NCBI GenBank assembly: GCA_012522645.1
Contig: JAAYKC010000018.1
Span: 1-60,002 of the forward strand
DNA from: Thermoplasmatales archaeon
Lineage (GTDB): Archaea; Thermoplasmatota; Thermoplasmata; Methanomassiliicoccales; Methanomethylophilaceae
Direction of reading: 5' to 3'
DNA: 60,002 bases
This document shows positions 14,314 to 48,461 of the stretch, piece by piece; within the stretch, counting starts at the first letter, position 1; every line of letters begins with the position of its first letter. The notes beneath the pieces are model-generated. The model searched no databases. It was not told the origin of the DNA and worked only from the letters and a program-made list of their open reading frames with translations. The translations under genes and the position numbers were made by a program.

Positions 14314-14323
14314 GCTGCGCAGG

Positions 14324-15970: not shown

Positions 15971-15972
15971 TT

Positions 15973-23417: not shown

Positions 23418-23418
23418 T

Positions 23419-23799
23419 TCATTCCTCCTGTCTCTCTGATGCGCTTATCGCATCCATACCCCGAATGCGCCTGCAGGTCTTCCGTCTGTGGCAGTCCCCG
23501 CTGTACTCGCATACCCTGTAGTTGCCTCCTCCGATCACCAGAGGTATCCCCTCTACGAGGGATCTCGCCATCTTCCGTCTGGCTTTGCTGTAGATGTCCT
23601 GCACGGTCGTACGGGCAACGCCCATGCGGTCCGCGCATTCATCCTGCTTCATGCCCATGTGATCTATGAGGCGTATCGTCTCATATTCCTCAACGTCCAT
23701 GCAGATTATCTCCTCCGAACTGAAATTCTCATTCAGCGGACCGTACTCCCTTCTGTTTGGGAGCCGGCAGACATTTCTCCGTTTCTTTGGACGCGGCAT
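23419..23799 (-). CDS. DUF134 (UPF0251) predicted DNA-binding protein with a Cys-rich C-terminal tail
   Basis: MPRPKKRRNVCRLPNRREYGP is the characteristic DUF134 N-terminus. HTH-like core MKQDECADRMGVARTTVQDIYSKARRK. Tail VCEYSGDCHRRKTC. Confidence 0.75.
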   Translation of the reverse strand: MPRPKKRRNVCRLPNRREYGPLNENFSSEEIICMDVEEYETIRLIDHMGMKQDECADRMGVARTTVQDIYSKARRKMARSLVEGIPLVIGGGNYRVCEYSGDCHRRKTCRRIRGMDAISASERQEE

Positions 23800-31241: not shown

Positions 31242-32600
31242 TCATACGCAGAATGTTTTCCTGCGATACATCGTGGTCCCGTCCTTTGCTGTGACGTTGA
31301 ACAGGCAGAAGGGTATCAGTTTACCGTCTAACGTCACCACGTGTATGCAGCAACGCTCCCATCTTTCAGTTTCACCGGTCCATGCGTCCTGGAAAGCCAT
31401 CGCGGATACTGTCAGATAATGTGTCTTGGCCCTCTTGACAAAGGATTTCCACGAATTATCCTCACTGTTGGAACTTCCGTCCATCGTCTCCTCTATCACC
31501 TTCCAGTATGTGGAGAGTTCCGTTCTGGTCTTCTCGGCAACATTGTCCGTCTTCTTGGGCGGACCCAGGGCCATCGTTGTCAACGGGAACAGACTGCCGT
31601 CGGGCAGGACCACCGAAAGGGACTTCAGATCACAGTGCACATTCGCACATGAGGTGGGCATGAAATTATCCGCCCTGAGCATGCCCTTGGTCTGCTTCTC
31701 GATCGCCTTGGTGAGATCTGACAGATAGACCCTGCTCTCGTCCTTCGGATCCTCGGGATATCTCCCGAAATGGGCTATGGGTTGGAAATGCACCCCCTTA
31801 ACAACAGGGACATTCTCTCCTGCGAACTTGATGATCTCGCCCACGGAATCGAGATTTATATCCGGAGATACTGTGACCACCAGGGTTATCCCTACGCCGC
31901 CCACTTCCCTGCAGTTCTCTATCGCTTTCTTCTTGACGTCAAAAAGGGGCTTTCCCCGGGTCTTCATGTATATCTCGTCATTCAGACCGTCGAATTGCAT
32001 GTAGAAATCATCGACACCGGCATCCCTGAGCGCTCTCAGATATTCTATGTCCCCGGATATGCGCAGGGCATTGGTATTCACCTCAACATGCTCGATGCCC
32101 ATCTCCTTGGCCATCCTGACTATCTCCGGCAGATCGTCCCTGACCGTGGGCTCTCCTCCGGACAGTTGTATGCAGCGCGGGCTGTCGACGTAATCGACTA
32201 TGGTCTTGAACATGCCTCTTATCGTTTCCATGTCCGGATGGAAATCATACCCGCACCCATTGGCTGTGGCGAAACATATGGGACAGTTCAGATTGCAGCG
32301 GTTGGTCACCTCAACGACCACGAGGCAGGTATGCTGCAGATGCTTTTCGCAAAGACCGCATTCTTGGGGACAGTCCTTTATCTCGCCCACGGCTCTCTTC
32401 TTAGGCGTCTTCGGAACGGCTGCGAATTCGTAAAGATCCTTGTAATTCTTCGCACCGGACCATATCTTTACCTTCCAGTCTCCGTGTTCGGGACACGTCT
32501 TGACGATGAAGATGTCGTCGCCCTCTTCCACTTTATCCGCATGTATGGTCTTCAGGCACACAGGGCACAGGGCATTGGTCTCGCCTATCTTATTAGCCAT
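31242..32600 (-). CDS. Radical SAM protein with N-terminal zinc ribbon; candidate tetraether lipid synthase (Tes / GDGT-MAS, MJ0619-family-like)
   Basis: CNLNCPICFA radical-SAM CxxxCxxC motif. N-terminal CPVCLKTIHADKVEEGDDIFIVKTCPEHG and CPQECGLCEKHLQHTC auxiliary Cys motifs. The specific function is inferred from architecture and lipid-gene proximity only. Confidence 0.6.
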   Translation of the reverse strand: MANKIGETNALCPVCLKTIHADKVEEGDDIFIVKTCPEHGDWKVKIWSGAKNYKDLYEFAAVPKTPKKRAVGEIKDCPQECGLCEKHLQHTCLVVVEVTNRCNLNCPICFATANGCGYDFHPDMETIRGMFKTIVDYVDSPRCIQLSGGEPTVRDDLPEIVRMAKEMGIEHVEVNTNALRISGDIEYLRALRDAGVDDFYMQFDGLNDEIYMKTRGKPLFDVKKKAIENCREVGGVGITLVVTVSPDINLDSVGEIIKFAGENVPVVKGVHFQPIAHFGRYPEDPKDESRVYLSDLTKAIEKQTKGMLRADNFMPTSCANVHCDLKSLSVVLPDGSLFPLTTMALGPPKKTDNVAEKTRTELSTYWKVIEETMDGSSNSEDNSWKSFVKRAKTHYLTVSAMAFQDAWTGETERWERCCIHVVTLDGKLIPFCLFNVTAKDGTTMYRRKTFCV

Positions 32601-33143: not shown

Positions 33144-34268
33144 TCACCACGTTCCGTAGGTACCGAAGTCCCTAGCAGCTCTGGTCATAGCGAGGAGGTT
33201 ACCCGGTATCGTGTACGGGGGCGTCTCGCATGTGTTGCCCAGAATGAACCCTTTCTTGGCGTCGCGGCCGGCAAGGAGACATTCCTTGGAGCGCTCGTAC
33301 ACCGCCTTCGGGTTCGGGTTGATCATCAGCTTCGTGTCGACGGATCCCATACAGGTCGCGACATCCTGGAACTCCTGCTTCAGCAGTTCGGACGGGAAGT
33401 CGATACGGCCCTTGTATCCGACATGTATAACCGTGAACGGAGACCATACCAGGTTGTTCCTGAAGACCTTATAGGAGGTCTCGTGGTTACCGCACAGGTG
33501 GTAGAATATCTGAGGTCCGGCTCCCTTTCTGAAGCACTGGTCCACGTAGTGGCCCATCTTCTTGGCACCGTACTCCTCTACCTGCTCGTCCGCGAATATA
33601 TCGTTGTTCGCCAGAACGGATCCGACGATCAGCATTGCCATACCGTACTTGTCAGACAAAGCGTCCGCACCGTTTATGGAGGTCTCAACGAAGGTATCGA
33701 CCAGCTTGTGCGCCAGGTCAGGCTCGGTGAAGGTCCACATGATGAAGTTCTCGACTCCGATCAGCTCTGCGGATGCTCCGACAAGGTCGAACCCGTATGA
33801 TATGGGAACCAGCGTGTGAGGCAGGTTCTTCTGCACATAGTCATACAGGTTGTAGAACAGAGGTATGGTCGATCCCTTCAGAAGGTCTTCCTTCTCGATG
33901 GGTTTCAGGTTCTCAATGCCCTCTGCGGTCGGCTCATATATCGGCCCTGTGGGGATCGGCGGGAGCGTGTCCTTGTATACCAGAGTCATGCCCAGTTCTC
34001 TTACCCACGGAAGAGAGAAGAACCAGTGCGTGACAGGCAGCAGGTCAAACAGCTCGGCGATGTATCCGACACAGTGTATTCCTAGTTCCGGTTTCTCGTA
34101 GAAGTCCCTGATCGTGAACCCGCAGTGCACGGCAGCGTTCGACAGCATGATAGGATCAACGTCGATTCTGTCGTGGTAGTTGTCCACAAAGGGGCTTGCG
34201 AATCTCTTGGCGGCATTTGCGTGCCATCCGTTGAGATCGTTTGTAGGGAATAATTCTTCGTAGCCCAT
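33144..34268 (-). CDS. Uroporphyrinogen-decarboxylase (URO-D) family methyltransferase, MtaA/MtbA-like
   Basis: YHLCGNHE (H-x-C zinc ligands) and distal NTCE, in a 374-aa URO-D-like layout. Confidence 0.65.
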   Translation of the reverse strand: MGYEELFPTNDLNGWHANAAKRFASPFVDNYHDRIDVDPIMLSNAAVHCGFTIRDFYEKPELGIHCVGYIAELFDLLPVTHWFFSLPWVRELGMTLVYKDTLPPIPTGPIYEPTAEGIENLKPIEKEDLLKGSTIPLFYNLYDYVQKNLPHTLVPISYGFDLVGASAELIGVENFIMWTFTEPDLAHKLVDTFVETSINGADALSDKYGMAMLIVGSVLANNDIFADEQVEEYGAKKMGHYVDQCFRKGAGPQIFYHLCGNHETSYKVFRNNLVWSPFTVIHVGYKGRIDFPSELLKQEFQDVATCMGSVDTKLMINPNPKAVYERSKECLLAGRDAKKGFILGNTCETPPYTIPGNLLAMTRAARDFGTYGTW

Positions 34269-34298
34269 AGTAATCCCAATGTGTTATTCTCTGAGCGC

Positions 34299-34306
34299 TA
34301 TATATA
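34299..34306 (-). promoter_or_regulatory. TATA box for the URO-D methyltransferase operon
   Basis: TATATATA lies 31-38 nt upstream of the ATG at 34268, implying a (near-)leaderless mRNA. A 7-bp inverted repeat ATATCAC...GTGATAT lies further upstream (about 34340-34366). Confidence 0.35.
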
Positions 34307-34435
34307 CGTTGTCCGCAAGAAAATGCAACATCGTTCCATATCACCTTTTTAAAGAAGTGATATTGGAATTATATTTCATAAAAATGTGTTTCAAAGAAAT
34401 ATTGTTTCAAAATACGGAAAATAGCCTTTTTTTGA

Positions 34436-34834
34436 TCAGCGGTACTTACTGTATCTGTCCAGCAGTCTGCATATCCTGTCCGTCTCCTCTTTCGTGAGAT
34501 CCCCTTCTTCGATGAAGGTCCTGACGAAATCCTTGGCATCCTTGGTGGATATGCGTGTCGCCTTGGCTATGACGGATGCCGTGAAAGACGATGCTTTGGA
34601 TTCATCCATCTGCGTAGAGACGATTATCTCATTCAGATCGTACTTGAAGGGCGCCACTCTGTGCGTATTGAGCATGGCCTGCCTTTTGGAATGCTCCTTC
34701 GTCTTGGTCCTGGGCTTTCGTTTCTTATAAGTGCTCCGGGGTTTGTTAACAACTAATGTGCCCCTGCTGTCACCCGTGCCGTCCGTTGCGCTGTCTTCCG
34801 TGTTTACCAAGATAAAACTCCTGGTTGATGACAC
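34436..34834 (-). CDS. Hypothetical protein with a basic N-terminal region
   Basis: The ORF has a GTG start, a KKRKPRTKTKEHSKRQ basic stretch and a helical C-terminal half. I recognise no family. Confidence 0.35.
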   Translation of the reverse strand: MSSTRSFILVNTEDSATDGTGDSRGTLVVNKPRSTYKKRKPRTKTKEHSKRQAMLNTHRVAPFKYDLNEIIVSTQMDESKASSFTASVIAKATRISTKDAKDFVRTFIEEGDLTKEETDRICRLLDRYSKYR

Positions 34835-34913
34835 AGGTTAACCTACTTAAAGATAGCCCGAAACCGAATATAATAGGGGGTAAAGGGTTTCAGCCGCTGT
34901 CGGGAGAATCCGA

Positions 34914-35168
34914 TCAGATCTTCTCTTTGGCCCTTGCCAGGCTCCTGGCGATGAGTGTTGTCATCACAACCGCAAGAATGGTCACGATCACAGCATATAT
35001 CGCCATCCCCATCAGATCGTTGGCCGTACCGAATACCTTATTGACGGCTGCTTTGATCGCTTCGTTCCAAGACAGAGCTGCCACGAGACCGAATGCGGAC
35101 GTTATCAACGCCGCGAACGTCTCGAGGACTTGTACATTGAATTTCTTCCTTTCATCCTCTGAAGACAT
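34914..35168 (-). CDS. Small membrane protein (hypothetical)
   Basis: ATG at 35168 preceded by GGGAG. Two hydrophobic helices. Confidence 0.45.
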   Translation of the reverse strand: MSSEDERKKFNVQVLETFAALITSAFGLVAALSWNEAIKAAVNKVFGTANDLMGMAIYAVIVTILAVVMTTLIARSLARAKEKI

Positions 35169-35291
35169 AGGTGCTCCCTCACATGTCATCTGAATTTACA
35201 GATATAATTGATTCTGTCCCATGAGTTCAGAGATGGTAGCTTAATGAACTTTTTATATGCTTAATCCGTCAGCGGTTGGAGGTTATAAAGC

Positions 35292-35969
35292 ATGGAAGAA
35301 GAATATCGTTCTCTCCCCTTAATCGGGGACAATGCACCGGAATTCAAAGCTGTTACGACCAAGGGCAGTCTCAATTTCCCCTCAGACTACAAAGGGAAAT
35401 GGGTCATTCTGTTCTCGCACCCGGCTGACTTCACGCCTGTCTGCACCACAGAGTTCATGACCTTCGCCAATGGCGCAGAAGAGCTGAAAGCGCTCAACAC
35501 CGAGCTCGTCGGCCTCTCCGTTGACGGTCTCACCTCCCACATCGCATGGCTGAGGAAGATAAAGGAGCTCGAGTGGAACGGCATGAAGAACGTGGATGTC
35601 GAGTTCCCCCTCATCGAGGACCTGAAGATGGATGTGGCCAAGAAATACGGCATGATCCAGCCCAACAGCTCGAACACGCAGGCCGTCAGGGCCATGTTCT
35701 TCATAGACCCCAAGGGGATCGTCAGATGCATACAGTACTACCCTCTGTCCACCGGAAGGAACTTCCACGAGATGGTCAGGGTCATCAAGGCACTGCAGAA
35801 GGCGGACAAGGACAGTGTCGCGACACCTGCCAACTGGATGCCCGGGGATGACACCATCTCCCCCGCTCCCGGCACCATGGAAGGCGCCAAGGAGAGGATG
35901 TCCGGCAAGAACAAGGACATGTACTGCCTTGACTGGTTCCTCTGCTTCAACAAGGAGAAGAAGAACTGA
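35292..35969 (+). CDS. Peroxiredoxin (Prx6/1-Cys-like thioredoxin peroxidase)
   Basis: FSHPADFTPVCTTE peroxidatic-Cys motif. 225 aa. Confidence 0.9.
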   Translation: MEEEYRSLPLIGDNAPEFKAVTTKGSLNFPSDYKGKWVILFSHPADFTPVCTTEFMTFANGAEELKALNTELVGLSVDGLTSHIAWLRKIKELEWNGMKNVDVEFPLIEDLKMDVAKKYGMIQPNSSNTQAVRAMFFIDPKGIVRCIQYYPLSTGRNFHEMVRVIKALQKADKDSVATPANWMPGDDTISPAPGTMEGAKERMSGKNKDMYCLDWFLCFNKEKKN

Positions 35970-36624: not shown

Positions 36625-36775
36625 CGCCGGGCGAAGAGGATGTCACGAAGGCCCCGGAGGATGTCCGTTCTGAAGACGATGCCGATCCTTGTTGGATGCG
36701 GCCCCTGGTATCGGTGAAGAGTCAGGACAGAAAGGATATATGATTCCATTCGATTAGGTGGACTCGGAGACGGGG

Positions 36776-37681
36776 ATGAAGAACTGGGAGTTCGACAAGG
36801 TAAGAGACAAGACTGTGAAGTTGGACAACGCCCTGGCTGATATGATGGGGCTCGTGGACGGCGGATACATCTACAGCACGCTTTTCGAGTACGATAACGA
36901 GAGCCCGAAGAAATACGAGCTCATCCTGTCCACTTATCCTCAGGAGAACTACAGGACGCTTACTAACATCACGATGTACATCCAGGATGTGCCGGGCTCC
37001 AGCGCCCAGGCGGCCAGATTCCTGGGGGACAGGGACATCAACATACTGAACTCCATCTCCCTGGAGGGCATATCCGATACGATCATCATATGGAAGATGC
37101 TCGTGGACCTTAACTTCGCAGGAGAAGTGAGCATTCTCACAGAGAAGTTCGCCGAGCTGAAGGAGAGGAATGACCCCTCTGTCTCCAAGATAGATCACAT
37201 ACAGATCAAGCCTGCCGATATAGGCCGCGTCTTCAGGACCGAAGGGCGTTCCGACAAGATAGAGATCAGGAGAGGAGTCCCGATCACCCTCAAGGATAAT
37301 ACCTATGACCTCTCGGTCGAGTACAGCGACATCTTCGAGGACTTCGAGGGAGAATCCGTCATGGTGGCAGCGGACTACGCCTCCTGGATCGTCTCCATCT
37401 CATTCTTCAAAGGAGAGACGAAACTGGTGAGGATAGGTCTGGAGATACCCGACTGCCCCGGATCCATAACCCAAGTACTGGATTGGATAGCGACAAAGAA
37501 CGTCAATCTCATCTCGGTGTTCAGCAAGATAAAGATCTGCTATCAGACGATGACATTGGACCTGGTGGCCGATTTCAGCGGCTGCAGGATGTCGATGGAC
37601 GAGTTCAGGATCAGCCTCGAGGATGCCCTGGAGGACATGAACGGGATCTTCGTCCTGACCCAGTATGAGGAGTTGAAATGA
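36776..37681 (+). CDS. Double ACT-domain protein, first gene of the acs operon
   Basis: Two ACT-like segments (ITMYIQDVPGSSAQAARFLGDRDINILNS; IGLEIPDCPGSITQVLDWIATKNVNLISVF). ATG at 36776 preceded by GGAG (the track gives GTG at 36758). ATGA overlap with acsB. Confidence 0.55.
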   Translation: MKNWEFDKVRDKTVKLDNALADMMGLVDGGYIYSTLFEYDNESPKKYELILSTYPQENYRTLTNITMYIQDVPGSSAQAARFLGDRDINILNSISLEGISDTIIIWKMLVDLNFAGEVSILTEKFAELKERNDPSVSKIDHIQIKPADIGRVFRTEGRSDKIEIRRGVPITLKDNTYDLSVEYSDIFEDFEGESVMVAADYASWIVSISFFKGETKLVRIGLEIPDCPGSITQVLDWIATKNVNLISVFSKIKICYQTMTLDLVADFSGCRMSMDEFRISLEDALEDMNGIFVLTQYEELK

Positions 37682-39891
37682 GCGTTCCCCCGACAGTTGA
37701 CGGGACGGCTTCCAAATACGGCATTGATTCCGCAGAGGAGATATCCTTCCTGCTGGAGAAGGTGAAGGCACCCGACGTCCCGTCCTTACTGGCACTTGCA
37801 GCAGAAGGGTCTGATGCCCTGGTGTCACTGGCCAAAAGATGCGTCAGGGCGGCCTCTGCGAAGCACGGAGACAACACCATTCTGGAATATCCCGAGACCG
37901 GGTACGGCGTGCCTTCCTTGTACGCCTGGAAGGGCATAGAGCGTCTGACCCTGAGGGATGCGACAGAGCTGTTGGATTCTCTTGATCCTGCGAAAAATGT
38001 TACTCTGGAAGACGGCCTGGCGGCAGGGGAGAATGCGATGTACGCAGCGGACATCCTCGAAGCGATAACCTATATCGGTGCCGAAGAGGCGAACCGGGAC
38101 GGTTTCATACCCGACCGCGTGATAAGGGAACTGGGGCTCAGTCTCGTGGACGAGACCATTCCGGGAGCTGCGGTTTTCTTGGGCGATACGGAGAGCGGAA
38201 ACGTGGCCCGGATGGCCAAGGACATACAGTCAAAAGGCATGCTGGGTCTTGTGACGTCCGGTACGCTTTCACCCGGATATGCAGAGAAGATGAGAGAGAA
38301 CGACATCGCCATGGGGCTTGACAGGATGATGTATCCTCTCGGCAACTTCACGGGAATAGTGCATGCCCTCAATTTCGATGTACGTGCGGCCCTCACTTTC
38401 GGAGGGGTCACGTCCGGCGACAGGGAAAAATTGTCATCGTATCTGGCCAAAAGACCAAAGGTCTTCGTGATCAAGACCGGAGATCTCAGCAGACTGGAGG
38501 CCTCTATCGCCTTCGCGGCCCTCATGCACAGTGCGCCCATAATCACAGACTCCGATCTGCCGGAGGTGCCCGGTGCCGTGAAGAGCACCGAAGACCTGGA
38601 GAGAATGGTCCAGGTGGGCATAGAGGAAAGAGGGATAATCGTAACACTGGAACCTCTGGATCTGCCTGTCGGCTACGGTCCGTCCTTCGAGGGAGAAGTA
38701 CTGAGAAAGCCTGATACATACATGGAAGCGGGAGGAGGCAGGAGCACAGCCTTCGAGTTGCTCGTCTCCAGGAACGAGGGCGAGATAGAGGACGGCAGGA
38801 TCCTCCTCATAGGCAAGGACCTGGACAAGATATCTGAGGGCTCCGTCATCCCTCTGGCTATGATCGTAGAAGTCTACGGCAGGGATATGCAGAGTGATCT
38901 GGAGCCTGTCATGGAACGCAGATTCCACAGCGGCATAAACTTCGCTGAGGGCATCTGGCACACCGGCCAGAGGAACTCGAATTGGGTCAGGATAAGCAAG
39001 AAGGCAGCGGCGAAGGGCTTCCGCATGACAGATCTGGGCAAGATGCTGATGCATACAGTCAGAAAAGAGTTCGGCAAGATCGTCACACGCATCCAGGTAA
39101 CTGTAATTACTGACCCTGACGAGATAGAGCGCCGCCTTCCAGCTGCCAAGGAAATCTATGGTGCCAGAGATGAAAGGATGAGAGGCCTCAAAGATGATCT
39201 GGTAGACTGTTTCTACACCTGCGCAATGTGCCAGTCCTTCGCTCCAGGGCACATATGCATCATATCACCGGAAAGACTGGGTCTTTGCGGTGCGATTAAC
39301 TGGCTGGATGCGAAGGCGGGCAATGAACTGGCCCCTTCCGGCCCCAATATGCCGGTAAGCATGGGGGTCACACTGGATAGTGCCAAAGGGGAATGGTCCG
39401 GAGTCAATGAGGTCGTGTCATCCGCATCATCCGGTACCGTTGAGAGGATGTGCCTCTACAGCCTGATGGACGCTCCGATGACCTCCTGCGGCTGCTTTGA
39501 GGTCATAATCGCGATGACCGTGGACATGCAGTCCGTGGTGCTCGTTGACAGGGATTATCTCGGCATGACGCCGATCGGCATGAAATTCTCCACCCTGGCC
39601 GGCTCCATAGGCGGGGGAAGGCAGACCCCCGGGTTCATGGGCGTCGGCAGGAAGTACATAACCAGTGAGAAGTTCATAGCCGCCGAGGGTGGGCTGCCCA
39701 GAGTCTCCTGGATGCCCAAGCGGCTCAAGGAGATGCTCGGCGAGGAGCTTGGTAAAAGGTGCCAGGATCTGGGAATTCCAGACCTCATGGACAAGATCGC
39801 AGACGAAACAATAACAGATGACGCCGAGGGGCTCATGGCGTGGATGGCAGAGGTTGATCATCCCGCCCTCCATATGGAGCCTCTCCTGTAG
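37678..39891 (+). CDS. acsB: Acetyl-CoA synthase, bacterial full-length AcsB type (A-cluster subunit)
   Basis: CAMCQSFAPGHICIISPERLGLCG matches the C-x2-C-x8-C-x9-C [4Fe-4S] ligand pattern. SCGCFE is the Cys-Gly-Cys Ni-binding motif. 737 aa including the about 300-aa N-terminal domain, colinear with Moorella-type AcsB. Ends in TAG. Confidence 0.92.
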   Translation: MSVPPTVDGTASKYGIDSAEEISFLLEKVKAPDVPSLLALAAEGSDALVSLAKRCVRAASAKHGDNTILEYPETGYGVPSLYAWKGIERLTLRDATELLDSLDPAKNVTLEDGLAAGENAMYAADILEAITYIGAEEANRDGFIPDRVIRELGLSLVDETIPGAAVFLGDTESGNVARMAKDIQSKGMLGLVTSGTLSPGYAEKMRENDIAMGLDRMMYPLGNFTGIVHALNFDVRAALTFGGVTSGDREKLSSYLAKRPKVFVIKTGDLSRLEASIAFAALMHSAPIITDSDLPEVPGAVKSTEDLERMVQVGIEERGIIVTLEPLDLPVGYGPSFEGEVLRKPDTYMEAGGGRSTAFELLVSRNEGEIEDGRILLIGKDLDKISEGSVIPLAMIVEVYGRDMQSDLEPVMERRFHSGINFAEGIWHTGQRNSNWVRISKKAAAKGFRMTDLGKMLMHTVRKEFGKIVTRIQVTVITDPDEIERRLPAAKEIYGARDERMRGLKDDLVDCFYTCAMCQSFAPGHICIISPERLGLCGAINWLDAKAGNELAPSGPNMPVSMGVTLDSAKGEWSGVNEVVSSASSGTVERMCLYSLMDAPMTSCGCFEVIIAMTVDMQSVVLVDRDYLGMTPIGMKFSTLAGSIGGGRQTPGFMGVGRKYITSEKFIAAEGGLPRVSWMPKRLKEMLGEELGKRCQDLGIPDLMDKIADETITDDAEGLMAWMAEVDHPALHMEPLL

Positions 39892-39899
39892 GTGATGAA

Positions 39900-40823
39900 A
39901 TGGCAGAGATACCATCAGTGAAGGAGAAATACACAGGTAAGATAGAAGAGATAGTATTCGGCAACTGTGTCGCCGGAGGCGCGGACGGAATGCCTTTCCT
40001 CTCCTTCGAGAATACGCTGAAGAGACGCCCGATGATAGCGGGCGAGGTGGTCGATGATCTGACCGACTATCCTGAAATCGCTGCCGAGATGTTCGACGGC
40101 CGCCAGAAGGACCCGGTGGAATGGGCCAATATGTGGAAGGAGATCGGTGCAGATATGATCTGCATGAGGTTCCCGGGCGCAGCCCCCGACAAGAAGGGCA
40201 CAACACCGGATGCGGCCGTCAGCATAGTGAAGAGCATCGCTGAGAAGACCGGGCTGCCGATCATGGTCACTGGATGCGGCATCCCTGATATCGATAATAA
40301 ACTGGCGGAAGCAGTCGGAGGTGCCATGAAGGGCACCAAGATCATATTGGGAAAGACAGAGGAGCACGAGTACAAGAAAATCTCCGCGGTCTGCGTATCC
40401 AACGGGCATGCGGTCCTGGCCTTCTCGAATCTGGATATAAACCTGGCAAAGCAGATGAATATCCTGCTCACTGATTTCGGTGTCGGGAGGGACGGCATAA
40501 CAATGGACCCCCTCATGGCAGCCCTGGGTATGGGGCTCGATTACTCTTACTCCGTGAATGAGAGGATCAGGCTGGCGGCGCTGTCAGGGGACAGGATGCT
40601 GCAGGTCCCCATGGTGTGCGACTGCACGGGAGCCTGGGACGTCGGGGATGCGGTGAGCACCGACGATCCGTCCCTTGGCGATGCGAAGCACAGGGTCGCC
40701 TGGTGGGAGGCCATGACCGCCCTTGCCGCAATGCTCTCCGGAGCGGACATACTCGTAATGAGGGGGCCCGGAGCCGCTGATATGGCCAGGGTGTACGCCG
40801 AGGAACTGACGGGGGTGTCCTGA
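39900..40823 (+). CDS. acsD: Corrinoid iron-sulfur protein small subunit (AcsD / CdhD-like)
   Basis: Colinear with AcsD (…PIMVTGCG…, NLDINLAKQMNILL, SVNERIRLAALSGDRMLQVPMVC). 307 aa. Confidence 0.85.
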   Translation: MAEIPSVKEKYTGKIEEIVFGNCVAGGADGMPFLSFENTLKRRPMIAGEVVDDLTDYPEIAAEMFDGRQKDPVEWANMWKEIGADMICMRFPGAAPDKKGTTPDAAVSIVKSIAEKTGLPIMVTGCGIPDIDNKLAEAVGGAMKGTKIILGKTEEHEYKKISAVCVSNGHAVLAFSNLDINLAKQMNILLTDFGVGRDGITMDPLMAALGMGLDYSYSVNERIRLAALSGDRMLQVPMVCDCTGAWDVGDAVSTDDPSLGDAKHRVAWWEAMTALAAMLSGADILVMRGPGAADMARVYAEELTGVS

Positions 40824-42151
40824 TGGCCACCGCCATAGAATACTTCAAATTGCTCCCGAAGACCAACTGCAAGGACTGCGGACAGCCCACATGCCTCGCC
40901 TTCGCCATGCTGTTGGCCAACCAGAAGGCGAAGATAGAGGACTGCCCGCACGTGAGCAAGGAATCTAAGGCTGTTCTCAGCGAATCCGCGGCACCCCTCA
41001 TGCGCACTGTCAGCGTCGGAACGGGGGGATCGGCAGTGGAGATGGGCGGGGAGACAGTGATCTACCGCCATGAGCGCCGTTTCGTCAATCAGACCGCATA
41101 CGCTCTGACCGTCTGCGATGACCTGGAGGGGAAGGCTCTGGAGGACAGAGTGAATACCGTTTCCGCTCTCAGCTTCGAACGTGTCGGGATGATCTTCGCA
41201 GCGGACATGATATCGATCAAGAACGTGAGCGGCGATCCTTCCAGATTCGCCGAGACCGCCAAGGCTGTATCCGCTCTTTGGAAGAAGCCCTTTATCCTGG
41301 AAACCGATGATGTATCTGCCATGGAGAAGGCTCTCGAAGCCGTGGGAAAACTGCGCCCCATGATTTACGGTGCAGGGCCCGGCAATCTGGACCGGATGGC
41401 TGCTCTGGCCAAGAAGCACGGCTGCACCCTGGGCATCAAAGCCGACGGTCCGGAATCCGCAGCCGATCTCTCTGTGAAGGCGAAGGCCGCCGGGGCGGAG
41501 GATCTGGTACTTGATCTGGGATGCCCCAATCTCAAGAGATGCCTGGAGGATCAGACCGTTGCAAGACGTGCGGCGGTGAAGAAGAAGTTCAAGCCGCTGG
41601 GATATCCCCTCATGAACAGAGTGGGGTGCGGGGAGTACGCCGTGGCGATCGCGGCGGTGTCCACTATGAAGTACGGCAGCCTCGTCATATTCGATGATCT
41701 GAAGAACTACGAGGCCCTGCCCCTCATGACCCTGAGGCAGAACATCTACACAGACCCGCAGGTCCCGATACAGGTCAAGCAGGCCCTTTACCCCATAGGC
41801 AACCCGGGAGAGCATTCGCCGGTGATGTTCACGACCAATTTCTCCCTTACCTACTTCACGGTCAGGGCGGACATAGAGAAGAGCAGGATACCGGTCTGGC
41901 TGCAGATAGTCAACACAGAGGGGCTGTCGGTCCTGACGGCCTATGCTGCAGGGAAATTCGAGCCTGAGAAGGTAGCCGAAGCGTTCGAGGAATCAGGCGT
42001 GCTGTCGAAAACGAACGGTCCGGTCGTGGTGCCGGGGCTCGTAGCACGCATGTCCGGCAAACTGGAAGAGGCCATCGGCAGGAAGGTCATCGTAGGAACC
42101 AATGAGTCAAAGCACATCCCGAAGCACCTGAAGGAGATCACTTCCCAGTAA
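40823..42151 (+). CDS. acsC: Corrinoid iron-sulfur protein large subunit (AcsC / CdhE-like)
   Basis: N-terminal LPKTNCKDCGQPTCLAFAMLLANQKAKIEDCP [4Fe-4S] motif. 442 aa. 1-nt overlap with acsD. Confidence 0.9.
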   Translation: MATAIEYFKLLPKTNCKDCGQPTCLAFAMLLANQKAKIEDCPHVSKESKAVLSESAAPLMRTVSVGTGGSAVEMGGETVIYRHERRFVNQTAYALTVCDDLEGKALEDRVNTVSALSFERVGMIFAADMISIKNVSGDPSRFAETAKAVSALWKKPFILETDDVSAMEKALEAVGKLRPMIYGAGPGNLDRMAALAKKHGCTLGIKADGPESAADLSVKAKAAGAEDLVLDLGCPNLKRCLEDQTVARRAAVKKKFKPLGYPLMNRVGCGEYAVAIAAVSTMKYGSLVIFDDLKNYEALPLMTLRQNIYTDPQVPIQVKQALYPIGNPGEHSPVMFTTNFSLTYFTVRADIEKSRIPVWLQIVNTEGLSVLTAYAAGKFEPEKVAEAFEESGVLSKTNGPVVVPGLVARMSGKLEEAIGRKVIVGTNESKHIPKHLKEITSQ

Positions 42152-42878
42152 GACTCTCTGCCAGGACCGCAAGGGCCTTCCCGAACTCCGTGTCGGACGG
42201 AATATCAAGGCACTCGCTCTCCACAGCGGACCTGACGATGTACTCGTCATGGGGCATAAGGAAGACATCCTCAAAGCCCAATTCTGCGGCGTAGCTCAGA
42301 AGGCTGTCCGCAGGACCGGCCACGTTGTTTATCACCAGGATCCTCCGCCCGGCATCAATGCTGACCTCGTCGACTATGCCGGACAGCCGGGATGCTGTCT
42401 TGATGCCTGTCCGTGTCGGATCGGAAACGAATACTATGGCGTCAGTCCGGGGAAGCGTCTTCCTGGACAGATGCTCCATGCCCGCTTCATTATCTATCAC
42501 CACATTATCGTACACGGGTATGATTTTGGCAAGGCAGTCCTTCATCACCCCGTTCACGAAGCAGTAGCATCCCTGGCCCTGAGGCCTTCCCATGACCAGC
42601 AGATCCACATTCCCTTCTTCGGATATTATCTGACGGACATGGTTCGCCACATACTCCTGCTTGCTTATGCCCGCAGGAACTATGTCCGGGTTGTTGACGA
42701 TGTCATTCCTGAGCTCCCCCACGGAGCCCAGCGGTTCCATTCCCAGCTTATCGCAGAGATTCGAGTTGGGGTCCGCATCCACTGCAAGGACGACCCCGTC
42801 CCTGGAGAGCAGTCTGATGAGCTGAGAGGAGATCGTGCTCTTGCCCACGCCGCCCTTGCCCGCCAGAGCGATTATCAA
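42138..42878 (-). CDS. cooC: CooC/AcsF-type Ni-insertion accessory ATPase
   Basis: (M)IIALAGKGGVGKSTISS deviant Walker A. The TTG start at 42878 is preceded by GGGGAGG and overlaps the upstream TGA. The track's 307-aa version overlaps the upstream gene. Confidence 0.8.
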   Translation of the reverse strand: MIIALAGKGGVGKSTISSQLIRLLSRDGVVLAVDADPNSNLCDKLGMEPLGSVGELRNDIVNNPDIVPAGISKQEYVANHVRQIISEEGNVDLLVMGRPQGQGCYCFVNGVMKDCLAKIIPVYDNVVIDNEAGMEHLSRKTLPRTDAIVFVSDPTRTGIKTASRLSGIVDEVSIDAGRRILVINNVAGPADSLLSYAAELGFEDVFLMPHDEYIVRSAVESECLDIPSDTEFGKALAVLAESLTGK

Positions 42879-43885
42879 AACCCGTACCTCCCCTTCATCT
42901 CCCTGGATACCCCGCTGAGGAGATCCAGTACAGAGTCCACCGCTTCCGGTGTCAGCCCTTCGAGGCCGCACTGCGGCGTGATCAGGGACCTGCGGGCTAT
43001 CAGCCCTTTGTCCAGGCCCTTGCTCTGGAGCTTCTCCATCACATTCTCCAGCTTGGCACATAGGCTCCTGACGGTCTCCCTGCTCAGATCCTCCTCTCTG
43101 TTGGGGATCAACCCCCAGGAAAGGGCGCCTCCTCTGTCAATGAACGCCTTCAGATCGTCAATGTATAGTGCCAGATTGTCTGAATATGAGTAAGCGTCGA
43201 AGCTCAGGATGTCCAATTTGGTCCTCAGGACCATGCCCCAGTCTGTGTTGCCGCAGCAGTGCACTGCCCGATAGCCTTCCACTCCGTCCATGGCCTCATT
43301 GATCCAATTCACCGCATCCTCTTCGCTTATCTGAGCGAAAGGTGAGCCCAGCAGAGAAAGGGATGGTTCATCGAAGAAGATTATGACACAGTCATTGGCC
43401 TTCATGAGCCTGTGCGCCTGCCATCTGGCTGTCATACAGACCGTCTTCCTGACTATCTCCCCGTAGGTCTCGTCGTATATCACCGAGCGTCCGTTGACAT
43501 CCTGGATCTGCAGACCTTCGCTTATGGGCCCGGTGACCTGCCCCTTAACCGCCCTGAACCGGGAGATGTCGTTGCCCAAAAGGCCGTATAACCCTGCGTG
43601 GCACTTCTCCGGAGGTTTGAAGAACTCCTCATTCTCGAATACTATCGCTTCGTATATTTCGGTCGGATCATAATCATCCAGATTCACGAAGACCTTCTCC
43701 CCCTCTGTCCTCAGCCCGGGAAGGTGCGCTCCGGTCTGCACGTACATGCTCTCCCGGATCCCCCTGGAAAGCTGCGGCCAGGAAGGGCAGTCCACCCTTC
43801 CGTCCAATATCCTGTCAAGCGCATCCTCCGGCTCATAAAAGGGCATAGACCCTATCAAAGTGGTAGCGAACTTCCAATCCATCAT
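42875..43885 (-). CDS. Core-MetE-like (cobalamin-independent methionine synthase catalytic-domain family) Zn methyltransferase
   Basis: ATTLIGSMP N-terminus. VHCCGNTDW (H-x-C) and LITPQCGLEG (PxCGL) zinc-ligand motifs of the MetE C-terminal domain. 336 aa, single domain. Confidence 0.65.
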   Translation of the reverse strand: MMDWKFATTLIGSMPFYEPEDALDRILDGRVDCPSWPQLSRGIRESMYVQTGAHLPGLRTEGEKVFVNLDDYDPTEIYEAIVFENEEFFKPPEKCHAGLYGLLGNDISRFRAVKGQVTGPISEGLQIQDVNGRSVIYDETYGEIVRKTVCMTARWQAHRLMKANDCVIIFFDEPSLSLLGSPFAQISEEDAVNWINEAMDGVEGYRAVHCCGNTDWGMVLRTKLDILSFDAYSYSDNLALYIDDLKAFIDRGGALSWGLIPNREEDLSRETVRSLCAKLENVMEKLQSKGLDKGLIARRSLITPQCGLEGLTPEAVDSVLDLLSGVSREMKGRYGF

Positions 43886-43906
43886 AGCATAGACCCCGTA
43901 TCCTTA

Positions 43907-45421
43907 TTAAAAATGCACCGAGGGGAACTGATCCCTTTCCGTGTGCGGAAGGAACTGCGCCGAGGTGTACTCATCATAGAATGCGGGGTCGGAACTGAGA
44001 TCCAGATATGTCGCATTGCAAGATATCGCATCTGTCCTGGTCCGGACGCTCTCCGACAGCAGATAATTGACCGCTCCGCCGAGGGATGCATTACCCAGAT
44101 AGACATATTTTGACCTGTCCACATCCGGGAAGAGCCCGATGGTGATCGCTGAGTCCAGGTTTATGAAGTTCCCGAAGCCGCCCGCTATGTAGATCTTATC
44201 CAGATCTCCGAATCCTATCCCCATGCTCCTTACCAGCGTCCTTGCAGCAGAGTAGATCGCAGCCTTGGTGAGCATTATGTCCATTATCTCAGACTGTGTT
44301 ATGACAACACCCGGTGCGATTGTGAATACCCCGTCCTCCGCATCCGCCCTCTCCGTGAAGTTCCCGCGCCTGTCGATCATGCCGGCGGCGAACAGCTGAG
44401 CCACAAGGTCGATTATCCCTGAACCGCATATGCCCTTCGGCTCCCCGCCTCCTATCACAGTGTATCTCACCTTGCAGTCTTCCACCTTCACACCGTCTAT
44501 CGCACCCAACTGTGCCAGCATACCCGATGTTGTCGTGGATCCCTCGAATGCGGGACCGGCTGATGACGAGCATACGAGCATCATGTCCCTGTTGCCCAGA
44601 GCCACCTCGCCGTTGGTGCCCACGTCTATCAGGAGGGACATTCCTTCAGAGAGATCCATTCCTGCCACGGTTATGTCACTCACCACGTCCCCTCCGACAT
44701 ACGATGATATGGCCGGCATCGTGTACACCAGGGCATCCGGGCTGACATCCAGTCCGCTCCCTGATCCCGTGGTCTCGGCCTTGACGAATACCGGTATGTA
44801 AGGAGGTTCCCTTATGGGTGAGGGGTCCACACCCAGGAACAAGTGCGTCATTGCCGTATTTCCTGACACGCAGACCGCATTTATGTTCTGTGTTCCCTCA
44901 GTGAAGGTATACAGGAGATCGTTTATCGTGCTCAGCACAAGACCTTTGAGCTCCGATGCCCCGCCATCGGCAGAGTACTGCATCCTGGCCAGAACATCCT
45001 CCCCTCGGTCCCTTTGCATATTGACGCCGGCGGCACGATACAGTGCCAGATGATCGTCCATATCCACGACCTCGATTGCCACGGTGGTCGTCCCGATATC
45101 TATGGCCAGACCGTGCCCGCTTGTAACAGAGGTCTTGTCATCCACGGGTATCCTCCTGTGATCCGTGATCCCCACGACCTTGTTCTTCTCTGCGGCCTTC
45201 TGGGTCATTACCTCGATGTCCTCTTCGACCGGAGTCTGACAGGCGAGAACCCTTTTCTTGATCTCACTGCCTATGATGACGGAGCACTTACCGCACCTCC
45301 CCTGACCCCCGCAGGGGAGGTTTATGGTCACTCCCGCCGCTGCCGCAGCCTGCGCTATGGTTGTCCCGGGCTCCACCTCAGCAGTCTTGTTCTCACTGAC
45401 GAATCTGACTCGAAAGGTCAT
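43907..45421 (-). CDS. Reductive activator of corrinoid Fe-S protein (RACo type: 2Fe-2S ferredoxin + ASKHA ATPase)
   Basis: N-terminal LPCGGQGRCGKCSVII...LACQT plant-type 2Fe-2S motif followed by a large actin-fold/DUF4445-like region. ATG at 45421; the track ORF extends to 45610. Confidence 0.8.
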   Translation of the reverse strand: MTFRVRFVSENKTAEVEPGTTIAQAAAAAGVTINLPCGGQGRCGKCSVIIGSEIKKRVLACQTPVEEDIEVMTQKAAEKNKVVGITDHRRIPVDDKTSVTSGHGLAIDIGTTTVAIEVVDMDDHLALYRAAGVNMQRDRGEDVLARMQYSADGGASELKGLVLSTINDLLYTFTEGTQNINAVCVSGNTAMTHLFLGVDPSPIREPPYIPVFVKAETTGSGSGLDVSPDALVYTMPAISSYVGGDVVSDITVAGMDLSEGMSLLIDVGTNGEVALGNRDMMLVCSSSAGPAFEGSTTTSGMLAQLGAIDGVKVEDCKVRYTVIGGGEPKGICGSGIIDLVAQLFAAGMIDRRGNFTERADAEDGVFTIAPGVVITQSEIMDIMLTKAAIYSAARTLVRSMGIGFGDLDKIYIAGGFGNFINLDSAITIGLFPDVDRSKYVYLGNASLGGAVNYLLSESVRTRTDAISCNATYLDLSSDPAFYDEYTSAQFLPHTERDQFPSVHF

Positions 45422-45481: not shown

Positions 45482-46198
45482 ATGATTATCCCCGGCAACA
45501 TGAAGATCTCGGGCTTCCTGAAGACCACCCTCCTCGATTGGGATGGGAAGGTCGCATGCACAATCTATCTGGCGGGATGTAATTTCAGATGCCCGTATTG
45601 TCACAACCACAGTCTTGTGCTGACGCCCGATAAGACAGACGACCTGCCGTTGGATGAGATATTGGATTACATTGAAAGGAACTCGGATTTCCTTGACGGC
45701 GTGGTCATATCCGGAGGCGAACCCACCTTGAACAAAGATCTGCCCGGCCTCATCAAGAGGCTGCGAAAATTAGGCATGAAAATAAAGATCGACACCAACG
45801 GGACGAGACCTGACATGCTGGACGACCTGATAGGCGCAGGGATGGTGGATTTCGTCGCCATGGATGTAAAGGCACCGCTGGATGGAAGATACTCGGCGGT
45901 CACAGGCGTGGAGGCGGATGTCTCCGACATCAGGAGGAGCATCCGGATCATCATGGAATCAGGAGTGGACTACGAGTTCAGGACCACGGTTGTGCCGGTC
46001 CTGCTCAAACCGGAGGATATGGAAGATATCTTCAGGGACATCCGCGGTGCCAAGAGATACAGACTTCATCAGTTCCGTCCCGTGAGCTGTCTGGACGAGA
46101 ACTTCACTGTCCTGGATCCGTATCCCGAGTCCGTACTGGTAGAGATGGGCGAAAAGGCCAAGAAATACGTCAAAGACGTCCGCATAAGGGGGATCTGA
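45482..46198 (+). CDS. Radical SAM activating enzyme (NrdG/PflA-like)
   Basis: DWDGKVACTIYLAGCNFRCPYCHN is the CxxxCxxC motif in NrdG-like context. GGEPTL. Confidence 0.75.
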   Translation: MIIPGNMKISGFLKTTLLDWDGKVACTIYLAGCNFRCPYCHNHSLVLTPDKTDDLPLDEILDYIERNSDFLDGVVISGGEPTLNKDLPGLIKRLRKLGMKIKIDTNGTRPDMLDDLIGAGMVDFVAMDVKAPLDGRYSAVTGVEADVSDIRRSIRIIMESGVDYEFRTTVVPVLLKPEDMEDIFRDIRGAKRYRLHQFRPVSCLDENFTVLDPYPESVLVEMGEKAKKYVKDVRIRGI

Positions 46199-46202
46199 GA
46201 CC

Positions 46203-47702
46203 TCAGACCTTGGGCGCAGTGCCCACCACCCTGCTGGAATCGTTAATGAATACTATCTCGGCCAATGCATTGCCCAGGAAGAAATCCGCCGCGCCCTCGT
46301 CCTTGGTTATGATCCCTGCGGATGCACCGAATTCCGAGGAGTTTATCAGTTCCACGGCATCCTCCAGATCCTGAGCTATCTGTATCGACAGCACGGGAAG
46401 GGAATTGTCCATGTTATTGAGGTCGTGCTCCTCGGGAAGCCCTGTGAAAACTGCGGGGGTCACGAAATAGCCATTCTCCAGGAACTCCCCCTTCACCCTC
46501 TTGCCTCCGAACAGGAGGTTATCCCTATTGGATTCAACCGTACAGAGCAGCCTTTCCAGATCCCTTTCGGACATTACGGGGCCCATGGTGCTCTCCTTTT
46601 CCGTCGGATCGCCGACCTTGATGTTCTTCAGTTCCAGCAGCAGCGCCCTCTGGAAGGAATCCGCATCGTCCGCAGTGACCACTACCTTGGATGTGGCATC
46701 CGTCCGCTGCCCGGAATACAGGACCATAGAGTCTACGACAAGTTTGGCGGCCTCCTTCATGCTGGCGGGCTTATACACCAGTATAGGGTTCATCCCCTTC
46801 GTCTCATTTATGAAGGCCAGGTCCTCATTCATCTGCATGAACATCATATCCTCAGCCAATACGCCCGAGCCTGAGAACGCTATGCCCTCCAGCTCCGTAC
46901 TGTCTGCAAGCGCCTTTGCCGAAGCATCTGTTTTGTCTGTTATGATATTCAATACCCCGGCGGGCAGGCGGACCATTTCCAATATGCTGTATACTGAATA
47001 AACCGGCATCGGGACCAGACCTGAAGGTATCATCACCACTGTGTTCCCCTCGATCATCGCAGATATTGCGAATCCCATCGGCGCCGCAAGCGGTGAGTTA
47101 TAGGAGGTTATGACCCCCCATACTCCCGCAGGATCACCGCATTCACCTTCACGCACGAAGGCACATGCATCATCGATTATCTCGATCAGGCGGTCCACTT
47201 CTTCCAAGGCATCCTTCCTGACCATTCCTGTGCTCAGAGTCAGTATCCCGGCCAGCCTGTACCTCTGCTTCATGATGAAATCATTGGCCGTCTCAAAATA
47301 TCCCGCTCTCTCAGCAGGGCTGATCCCCGACCACGAATCGTAGGCTTCACCGGCGGCCTCCACCGCTCTGTCCACCAAACCCTCGTCCGGTTCCTGGAAT
47401 CTCCCGAAGATTATGGTCTTGTCTATGGGGCTGGAAACATCGAAGGACCTGCCGGAGGCTATCTTGACACCGCCTACGTAACTGGGATAGTCCTTCTTCT
47501 CTGTGTTGAAGACCGCATTCAGTACGTTCTCGTACATACGGTCATCTTCTGCGACCGCATCATCGGGATTTTTCATGTCCGGATAATGTGCGGTCTCCCG
47601 TTTTATATGTTCCCGCAGTGGGTCGGTGTCTGAGGAGGGGTGTTCTGCGGAATGCCGTCTGTATGCATTAAATACGGGGGTGTGCACCGACCTTGTTTCC
47701 AT
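46203..47702 (-). CDS. Aldehyde dehydrogenase-superfamily protein lacking the catalytic cysteine
   Basis: ALDH landmarks are present (GVITSYNSPLA, IAFSGSG, ETKGMNP, GDP, GYFVTPAVF, NSSEFGASAGIIT). The GQxCxA nucleophile motif reads GQRTDA. Confidence 0.75.
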   Translation of the reverse strand: METRSVHTPVFNAYRRHSAEHPSSDTDPLREHIKRETAHYPDMKNPDDAVAEDDRMYENVLNAVFNTEKKDYPSYVGGVKIASGRSFDVSSPIDKTIIFGRFQEPDEGLVDRAVEAAGEAYDSWSGISPAERAGYFETANDFIMKQRYRLAGILTLSTGMVRKDALEEVDRLIEIIDDACAFVREGECGDPAGVWGVITSYNSPLAAPMGFAISAMIEGNTVVMIPSGLVPMPVYSVYSILEMVRLPAGVLNIITDKTDASAKALADSTELEGIAFSGSGVLAEDMMFMQMNEDLAFINETKGMNPILVYKPASMKEAAKLVVDSMVLYSGQRTDATSKVVVTADDADSFQRALLLELKNIKVGDPTEKESTMGPVMSERDLERLLCTVESNRDNLLFGGKRVKGEFLENGYFVTPAVFTGLPEEHDLNNMDNSLPVLSIQIAQDLEDAVELINSSEFGASAGIITKDEGAADFFLGNALAEIVFINDSSRVVGTAPKV

Positions 47703-47721: not shown

Positions 47722-47942
47722 TTTCAGTATCTATATGCTTCTATTCTACGAATCTCGAATTATATTTTACGTTTTTCAACTATCTGAATTAAATATGAGG
47801 AATGGAATCGGTCTTTGGTCTGTCCCGGAACAGGTGCCGTCCGGCAATCTCATCCCGGGATCGGGCTCATCCGCAAAAGGAGGAATGAGAAATAACTGAG
47901 AAGTTAGGTAACGGCGGACCGCTCGGTCTGAGCGCGTTCGCA

Positions 47943-48461
47943 TTGACTACGTTCTGCCTGATGGTCCATAATGCCGGGCTGTTCGATGTGAACTCTATGA
48001 TAATGGCCATGGCCTTTGCATACGGCGGTGCGATGCAGATGATTGCCGGAGCGATGGAATGGAGGCGCGGGAACACCTTCGGAACGGCAGCTTTCCTGTC
48101 CTACGGCGCATTCTGGGTATCATTCGGTTTGATGACACTGCTCCCCGAGACAGGGATGATCATAGCAGCTGACGGCATGGCCATGGCCACCTACATGTTC
48201 GCATGGGGGCTCTTCACCGGCCTGATGTTCATAGGGACCCTCAAGTCCCCTATAGCCCTCCGGGTCGTCTTCGCCCTGCTGACTATAGTCTTCATGATGC
48301 TGGCGGTCAACTATGCCATCGGCGTTGAAGTGATATTCACCAGGATCATATCCGTCTTCGGCCTGGCTCTCGCCCTCTCGGCGCTCTACACCGGAATGGG
48401 GGAGCTCATCAACGAAATGCACGGAAAGGAGATCCTGCCGCTGGGTGTCAGGAAGAGCTGA
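47943..48461 (+). CDS. satP: GPR1/FUN34/YaaH-family acetate/succinate channel (SatP-like); homology extends upstream to 47889
   Basis: FAYGGAMQMIAGAMEWRRGNTFGTAAFLSYGAFW core. The conserved N-terminal (E)KLGNGGPLGLSAFA is encoded in frame at 47898-47942, upstream of the first canonical start. Confidence 0.75.
   Translation: MTTFCLMVHNAGLFDVNSMIMAMAFAYGGAMQMIAGAMEWRRGNTFGTAAFLSYGAFWVSFGLMTLLPETGMIIAADGMAMATYMFAWGLFTGLMFIGTLKSPIALRVVFALLTIVFMMLAVNYAIGVEVIFTRIISVFGLALALSALYTGMGELINEMHGKEILPLGVRKS

Follow-up and report, generated by a model that had tools for sequence, protein, structure and literature searches.

How a bacterial-type acetyl-CoA synthase (ACS) may be used by an archaeon that harbors no carbon monoxide dehydrogenase (CODH) gene next to it is the question raised by a seven-gene module at positions 36776–45421 of the DNA analysed here, a 60-kb stretch (60,002 nt; in the following, the window) of a Methanomethylophilaceae archaeon (order Methanomassiliicoccales). 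The window was recognized as archaeal by genes for RadA, an archaeal CCA-adding enzyme, GGGP and DGGGP synthases, and a geranylgeranyl reductase, and its proteins were closest to those of Methanomethylophilaceae metagenome-assembled genomes (MAGs) and of RumEn M2. Our answer, to which we assign a probability of roughly 0.6, is that the module forms a Dehalococcoides-like route, in which acetyl-CoA is cleaved, its methyl group passes via the corrinoid iron-sulfur protein (CFeSP) into methionine, and CO is released. An initial annotation of the sequence had delimited seven open reading frames (ORFs) and pointed out the likeness to the incomplete Wood-Ljungdahl pathway of Dehalococcoides mccartyi. 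All seven ORFs are present, and an independent gene call on contig JAGVTR010000010.1 of MAG GCA_019136715.1, which is 99.88% identical to the window and belongs to a close, though not identical, strain, revealed the same boundaries apart from one start codon. The likeness held as well, with AcsB, AcsCD, and a MesB-type protein encoded together and neither CODH nor AcsE encoded locally.

The product of acsB (37678–39891, plus strand; 737 aa) passed the NCBIfam model NF040764 (839.6 bits, cutoff 800) and displayed the Pfam domains CODH_A_N, CdhC, and ACS_CODH_B_C. Since its residues 44–737 matched Moorella ACS over the full length (residues 27–728, 684 bits), while archaeal CdhC reached only 361 bits, AcsB is, judging from sequence, of the bacterial three-domain type with an intact A-cluster site. 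Both the [4Fe-4S] ligand motif CxxCx8Cx9C (CAMCQSFAPGHICIISPERLGLC, from residue 515) and the two-Ni ligand motif CGC (from residue 604) aligned to the respective motifs of Moorella, and a phenylalanine is kept at the position of Moorella F229, a CO-alcove residue according to a preprint (bioRxiv 10.1101/2020.06.23.165407). Downstream on the same strand, acsD (39900–40823; 307 aa) and acsC (40823–42151; 442 aa) encode the small and the large subunit of CFeSP, both scoring above curated cutoffs. AcsD reached 299 bits with NF003376 (cutoff 280) and 209 bits with the small subunit of Carboxydothermus hydrogenoformans CoFeSP (2h9a_B). AcsC reached 528 bits with NF003195 (cutoff 306) and 361 bits with Moorella CFeSP (4djd_C), and its Pfam domains FeS and CdhD correspond to an N-terminal [4Fe-4S] motif (CxxCxxxxC...C) and a CdhD-type barrel.

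Two genes on the opposite strand encode putative maturation and repair functions. A RACo-type ATP-dependent reductive activase (43907–45421, minus strand; 504 aa) revealed the Pfam domains Fer2, Raco_middle, and RACo_C_ter, i.e., [2Fe-2S], middle, and ASKHA ATPase domains, and scored 349 bits with C. hydrogenoformans RACo (3zyy). It is a short form in which no RACo_linker domain was found within the 504 aa, and it stayed below the cutoff of the NCBIfam AcsV model NF040756 (420 against 800 bits); the ortholog in a basal clade (locus L012; 634 aa) possesses the linker. The product of cooC (42138–42878, minus strand; 246 aa) is predicted to be a P-loop Ni-insertion ATPase of the CooC/AcsF type, based on a GKGGVGKS Walker A motif at its N-terminus, CooC1 (3kje, E 2.7e-15) as the closest solved structure, and a CYC at residues 104–106 (CxC Ni motif) aligned to the CYC of CooC1. 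In Pfam and NCBIfam no curated model was passed, generic CbiA/MinD-type matches below cutoffs being the only ones, and it is the gene context alone that suggests a specificity for ACS rather than CODH. Altogether, profile searches ORF by ORF agreed with the initial annotation in its parts list (AcsB, AcsD, AcsC, RACo, and a CooC/AcsF-type ATPase), in the intact A-cluster ligand motifs, and in the bacterial type of the ACS and CFeSP proteins.

Between the activase and the Ni chaperone lies a gene (42875–43885, minus strand) for a 336-aa protein with no match in Pfam, only a 32-bit match to a MesA-type model in NCBIfam, and no solved structure detectable by sequence. Several lines place this protein in the MesB family, that is, among predicted Zn-dependent methyl-corrinoid:homocysteine methyltransferases, as a core methionine synthase without folate domain. 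Its candidate Zn ligands H209, C211, D230, and C306 show the same spacing as those of D. mccartyi MesB (214/216/235/311), and D172 is the counterpart of D177 in that enzyme, while the spacings of MesA (216/218/240/301) and MesC (204/206/225/314) differ (ligand positions from Price et al. 2021, PMC7857596). The third Zn ligand is an aspartate in characterised MesB as well, in contrast to the glutamate of E. coli MetE (PMC7857596). The four ligands, S13 (within IGSMP), and D172 did not vary among 30 homologs with identities as low as 53%. Among 150 representatives with pairwise identities below 50%, the ligands were still found in 150 (H), 147 (C), 150 (D), and 148 (C) sequences, and the equivalents of the homocysteine-binding residues S13 and D172 in 129 and 144, respectively. 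Overall, the family comprised 3770 matches. An AlphaFold2 (AF2) model with a predicted local distance difference test (pLDDT) value of 91.9 displayed the fold of the MetE catalytic domain, the N-terminal folate domain being absent, and Foldseek returned MesD (3rpd) and the catalytic (C-terminal) domain of MetE on top (E about 1e-9), followed by UroD/MtaA-like structures (1e-6). Relatives with 36–42% identity, named methionine synthase by NCBI, occur in Chloroflexota/Anaerolineae and in other Thermoplasmatota, the match to one such Chloroflexota cluster reaching 245 bits at 42% identity, and further relatives in Thermodesulfobacteriota. Thus, the placement was made via published residue numbers, fold, and named relatives, the Dehalococcoides enzyme DET0516 being compared by description only. 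The protein shares with the MesB family the size of c. 340 aa, the lack of a folate domain, the HxC...D...C ligands of the same spacing, and the clustering with acsC and acsD, here at a distance of less than 1 kb; unlike the MesB reference, its close homologs are annotated as hypothetical proteins by NCBI, and no Pfam or NCBIfam model recognizes them.

MetE, MtaA/MT2, and UroD have a common fold and a His-x-Cys...Cys zinc site, so that the 336-aa protein might also be read as a methyltransferase from CFeSP to coenzyme M or another thiol, feeding the methyl group of acetate into methanogenesis. The presence of MtaA-like 4ay7 and of UroD among the fold matches and the failure of every curated hidden Markov model to recognize the protein would fit such a role, which we nevertheless regard as highly improbable. 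Methionine synthases preceded the UroD/MtaA-type structures by about 1000-fold in E-value, the equivalents of Ser13 and Asp172 as well as the MesB-type Asp ligand are conserved, and members of the family are common in Chloroflexota and Thermodesulfobacteriota, non-methanogens that are not known to make coenzyme M. In addition, the characterised member of the family makes methionine (PMC7005905).

The arrangement of the module is kept in at least eight other Methanomassiliicoccales loci. The order of the gene for a tandem-ACT protein, acsB, acsD, and acsC, followed by convergent cooC, mesB, and the RACo gene, was the same in UBA381, STF1_170, RumEn M2, and a MAG with 65% identity, and also in two loci of Methanomassiliicoccaceae (L019 and L020), so that it is found in both families of the order. 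A shorter contig from a termite gut (L004) revealed this order until its end within mesB. The overlap of mesB and cooC is preserved in L019, L020, and locus L012 of the basal clade, and the adjacency of the RACo gene and mesB extends beyond the order to another Thermoplasmatota lineage (L011). Compared with UBA381, the ratio of non-synonymous to synonymous substitutions (dN/dS) was 0.056–0.076 in all seven genes of the module, and higher in two genes flanking it. All seven are under strong purifying selection and therefore appear functional rather than decaying. The same values bear on another possibility, namely that MesB is fed mainly by CFeSP charged otherwise, for instance by some other methyltransferase that uses methanogenic substrates, with ACS serving only as an overflow or buffer. 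This would spare a methylotroph the waste of acetyl-CoA, and some MesB/MesC paralogs may use other corrinoid proteins (PMC7857596). We consider it distinctly unlikely, as AcsB (dN/dS 0.069) and the Ni chaperone (0.063) are as strongly conserved as MesB and always co-located with it, which is hard to reconcile with a dispensable ACS, and no candidate charging enzyme was consistently linked. Synonymous divergence from UBA381 was 0.68–1.37 for the module genes and 0.38–0.43 for the flanking URO-D-like and peroxiredoxin genes (33144–35969), a contrast for which different codon constraints or a past recombination of the module are possible explanations.

The main rival of the proposed route assumes that CODH and AcsE are encoded elsewhere in the genome. 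Pfam scans of all greedily called window ORFs of at least about 150 aa gave no match to CODH/prismane, CdhB, or Pterin_bind across the 60 kb, in agreement with the initial annotation, which had reported no CODH catalytic subunit, CdhB, or AcsE/MeTr there. None of CODH, AcsE, MetF, MetH, and MetE was found in the window or in the ±10 kb flanking the module in L019 and L020. Thus, the designation as CODH-less is correct locally, for the window and the ±10 kb in relatives; extended to the whole genome, it goes too far. In a basal Methanomassiliicoccales clade (L012/L013), the same module is rearranged, accompanied by AcsE (NF005719, 274 bits, cutoff 259), MTHFR, and MetV within 10 kb and by a long-form RACo, and the MALP genome belonging to it has been reported to possess ACS/CODH and a complete tetrahydrofolate (THF) C1 pathway (PMC6147122). 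It follows that the reduced gene set seen in the gut clades is derived. The rival would be an ordinary split carbonyl branch with CODH, perhaps together with acsE and metF, at another site, i.e., a complete THF-dependent Wood-Ljungdahl pathway from which MesB taps off methyl groups. Besides the gene content of the basal clade, this would be in line with the full N-terminal domain of AcsB, which in acetogens docks to CODH, and with a CooT and CooC-like pair located away from acs genes in L017. It is rendered unlikely by the missing CODH and Pterin_bind genes in the 60 kb and up to 10 kb from the module in either derived family, by published descriptions of host-associated Methanomassiliicoccales as lacking the Wood-Ljungdahl pathway, and by the need of isolates for acetate (PMC10658910). 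The pair in L017 (GCA_049718775.1, 2036–3037), whose surroundings of 10 kb contain neither acs nor CODH genes, hints at a further Ni-enzyme maturation system in some Methanomassiliicoccales.

Based on these genes, acetate would be imported and converted to acetyl-CoA elsewhere in the cell, and the A-cluster (Ni-Ni-[4Fe-4S]) of AcsB would split acetyl-CoA into CoA, CO, and a methyl group, which would be transferred to the cobalt of AcsCD. From the resulting methyl-Co(III), MesB would move the methyl group to zinc-activated homocysteine, yielding methionine, while CO would be released or consumed by something encoded outside the cluster. RACo would spend ATP to re-reduce cobalt that has accidentally been oxidised to Co(II), and the CooC/AcsF-like ATPase would load nickel into AcsB. 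We infer the direction of ACS, the direct transfer from CFeSP to MesB, and the fate of CO. In favor of the route, mesB is linked to the RACo gene, cooC, and acsBCD in both families and also in the rearranged basal clade. Cultured rumen relatives require acetate (PMC10658910), and a gene for an AceTr-family acetate channel lies 2.5 kb from the RACo gene. In D. mccartyi, methylcobalamin serves the core-MetE/MesB enzyme as substrate in vitro, and methionine receives its methyl group from C2 of acetate (PMC7005905; PMC7857596).

The ACS reaction is reversible, and the organism displays plentiful methyl-corrinoid chemistry. The opposite direction, also put forward in the initial annotation, would transfer methyl groups of methanol or methylamines to CFeSP, and ACS would join them with exogenous gut CO and CoA to acetyl-CoA for assimilation. 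A Methanomassiliicoccales-specific URO-D/MtaA-like gene is located near the module in three lineages, which would fit this reading, though it is unlinked to the module in L015/L016, L017/L018, and L019. Since the cluster contains neither a CO-producing enzyme nor a methyltransferase known to charge CFeSP, and since the rumen relatives need acetate (PMC10658910) and MesB would be left without a role, this operation seems very unlikely.

Several points weigh against the cleavage route from acetyl-CoA to methionine as well. MesB could be supplied by other methyl-corrinoid proteins, which abound in a methyl-reducing methanogen, and for such a host the cleavage of acetyl-CoA with release of toxic CO looks wasteful. 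The likeness of MesB to the Dehalococcoides enzyme is expressed in published residue numbers, not in a bit score, and the absence of CODH, AcsE, MetF, MetH, and MetE applies to 60 kb only. Given AcsE and MTHFR in the basal clade and the CODH reported there, the derived loss may not be complete. Finally, unlike its counterpart in D. mccartyi, the route is predicted here from genes.

In comparison with known systems, the module is closest to the incomplete Wood-Ljungdahl pathway of D. mccartyi (Zhuang et al. 2014, as cited in PMC7005905), which also combines AcsB and AcsCD with a folate-independent, methylcobalamin-using core methionine synthase, has no CODH or AcsE, and for which acetyl-CoA has been proposed as methionine methyl source with CO as by-product. 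The archaeal version differs in its methanogenic host, in the compact convergent cluster that includes RACo and a CooC/AcsF-type chaperone, and in the additional tandem-ACT protein coupled to acsB. The bacterial CODH/ACS system of acetogens and carboxydotrophs (Moorella thermoacetica and C. hydrogenoformans) shares full-length homologs of AcsB, AcsC, AcsD, RACo, and the CooC-type ATPase; in the window, however, AcsA/CooS and AcsE/MeTr are missing nearby, RACo has no linker, and the proposed direction is cleavage and not synthesis. With archaeal CdhABCDE the module has the A-cluster and corrinoid chemistry in common, while AcsB here possesses the bacterial N-terminal domain and CdhA and CdhB are lacking. 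Gut Methanosarcinales (Methanimicrococcus and Methanolapillus) are likewise host-associated, methyl-reducing, and acetate-needing, and have lost the CODH part, i.e., CdhA and CdhB, while keeping ACS and/or corrinoid subunits; their subunits, though, are of the archaeal Cdh type in a lineage containing tetrahydromethanopterin, and no link to MesB has been described (PMC11362671).

The module is not a new system, and the link between acetate and methionine has already been predicted for the order. Transfer from CoFeSP to core-MetE was proposed in Dehalococcoides by Deobald et al. 2020 (PMC7005905). Subsequently, Price, Deutschbauer and Arkin 2021 based a family named MesB on the Dehalococcoides enzyme, with CoFeSP as its predicted methyl donor, found AcsC or AcsD in all 123 MesB-containing proteomes, showed mesB-acsCD operons in methanogens, and counted a Methanomassiliicoccus proteome as containing MesB, stating that Methanomassiliicoccales "have MesB only", consistent with their prediction (PMC7857596). 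The initial annotation had regarded the route as not yet demonstrated in archaea, which remains true, as no experimental demonstration in an archaeon was found in the searchable literature, but the idea had been predicted in the latter study. In the open literature searched, the CODH-free, CO-releasing consequence for Methanomassiliicoccales was not spelled out; the module is not discussed by Borrel 2014, and a scheme for Methanomassiliicoccus by Cozannet et al. includes CdhDE (PMC7824343). In human and ruminant guts, the main methanogens living on methylamines and methanol belong to this order. For them, an acetate-fed, Ni- and cobamide-dependent ACS/CFeSP/MesB route would, if it were their only way to methionine, partly explain the acetate requirement. 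It would also predict a release of CO into the gut, provide a lineage-specific metabolic target, and fill a gap in methionine synthesis, methionine not being listed among the complete pathways in one genome reconstruction (PMC7824343). The locus also illustrates clearly how an archaeon took over a carbon-fixation module from bacteria and later reduced it: the basal clade keeps AcsE and MTHFR, and the gut clades have neither near the module.

The first gene of the module (36776–37681, plus strand; 301 aa), to which the initial annotation gave too little weight, encodes the tandem-ACT protein, with weak Pfam ACT matches in both halves. Its AF2 model (pLDDT 81) matched GcvR-like 1u8s, SerB2, the beta subunit of aspartate kinase, and the small subunit of acetohydroxyacid synthase on top of the Foldseek results, all of them tandem-ACT regulators in amino-acid biosynthesis. 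The family is small (331 matches), every named member belongs to Methanomassiliicoccales, and in the loci of conserved order the gene is always located directly 5' of acsB. With a dN/dS of 0.056 it is the best-conserved module gene in the clade of the window, whereas it is absent from the module of the basal clade (L012/L013). We infer that the protein, co-translated with AcsB, probably senses methionine, S-adenosylmethionine (SAM), or homocysteine and tunes the flux, and a ligand-sensing partner of ACS would fit an anabolic, amino-acid-linked role. This lineage-specific, translationally coupled, possibly feedback-sensing protein is what is new here, and it was not mentioned in the open literature searched. 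A more far-reaching proposal, which we put forward as speculative and rather doubtful, would make it the amino-acid-sensing regulatory subunit of a CODH-free ACS, and thus the latter the first feedback-controlled ACS, a horizontally acquired bacterial carbon-fixation enzyme rebuilt solely to generate methyl groups for anabolism, with CO given off in animal guts. A fusion of ACT and AcsB in the basal clade was considered for the 1009-aa AcsB of L012 (16975–20004, minus strand) and rejected, as its extra 310 aa revealed no similarity to the tandem-ACT protein by BLASTP or hhalign. This N-terminal extension has no detectable family and could be an over-long gene call. The same locus carries, between acsC and cooC, a 754-aa ORF (12349–14613, minus strand) without Pfam or NCBIfam match and a 149-aa fn3-like ORF.

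The gene junctions are tight throughout, and every overlap noted in the initial annotation was seen as described. The stop of the tandem-ACT gene and the start of acsB share ATGA, indicating translational coupling, acsD and acsC share one base in TGATG, and the TTG start of cooC overlaps the TGA of mesB (TTGA), while the convergent genes acsC and cooC overlap by 14 nt. The boundary that differed in the gene call on GCA_019136715.1 is the start of the tandem-ACT gene, where an upstream GTG at 36758 (307 aa) was chosen instead of ATG 36776. A BRE/TATA-like element (B recognition element/TATA; AAAGGATATATGA, 36731–36743, plus strand) is the putative promoter of the plus-strand unit. The sequence AAAGGATATATGATT, 33–45 nt 5' of the ATG, occurs at the same distance in L001–L005 and near-identically in L019. 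It is kept in six other loci of both families, where the surrounding intergenic sequence diverges, and it favors ATG 36776 as start. A further putative promoter, TTTTATTG, is located about 27 nt upstream of the RACo start. The stop codon of acsB is TAG (39889–39891), as in L001, L002, and L005. In the Methanomassiliicoccales lineage, UAG is decoded as pyrrolysine; read-through would add 9 residues to AcsB, and TAG terminates 6 of 50 window ORFs.

Some neighboring genes were considered as further members of the module. The divergent URO-D/MtaA-CmuA-like gene (33144–34268, minus strand) encodes an HxC...C motif and belongs to a family of 207 matches with only Methanomassiliicoccales names. An ortholog with 55% identity lies near the acs/mesB module in L012 and a copy near the module in L020, but the gene was rejected as eighth member because the 10 kb around the module contained none in L015/L016, L017/L018, and L019. 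A radical-SAM gene (45482–46198, plus strand) was identified as NrdG2 by an equivalog model (208.8 bits against 131), showed only 24% identity to the radical-SAM protein of L012, and was rejected, as was an aldehyde dehydrogenase gene (46203–47702, minus strand), copies of which are only 28% identical. Both types of gene flank the RACo gene in the window, L019, and L020, and in L012 the distant radical-SAM gene is located between the RACo gene and mesB, a synteny that may be coincidental.

The AceTr (GPR1/FUN34/YaaH) gene (47886–48461, plus strand) encodes its conserved N-terminal GNGGPLGL upstream of the first canonical start codon and just 3' of an in-frame TGA (47886–47888), so that translation can plausibly begin only at ATA 47892, which follows GGAGG. 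As this layout is kept in L001 and L005, it is not an assembly error. Farther upstream in the window, a radical-SAM protein (31242–32600, minus strand) scored 518.7 bits with the NCBIfam model TrsS (cutoff 490) and 389 bits with tetraether lipid synthase Tes, and an FmdE-domain protein with a DksA/TraR-type zinc finger (15458–16003, minus strand) was found in a lineage lacking the CO2-reduction pathway. Finally, five genes at 20517–23799 (minus strand) encode a DUF134 protein, a NifB/NifX-like protein (Nitro_FeMo-Co), two CbiA/ParA-type P-loop ATPases with inserted 4Fe-4S ferredoxin domains, and a metallo-beta-lactamase-fold protein, and this cluster appears to serve the handling of metalloclusters, without relation to the acs module.

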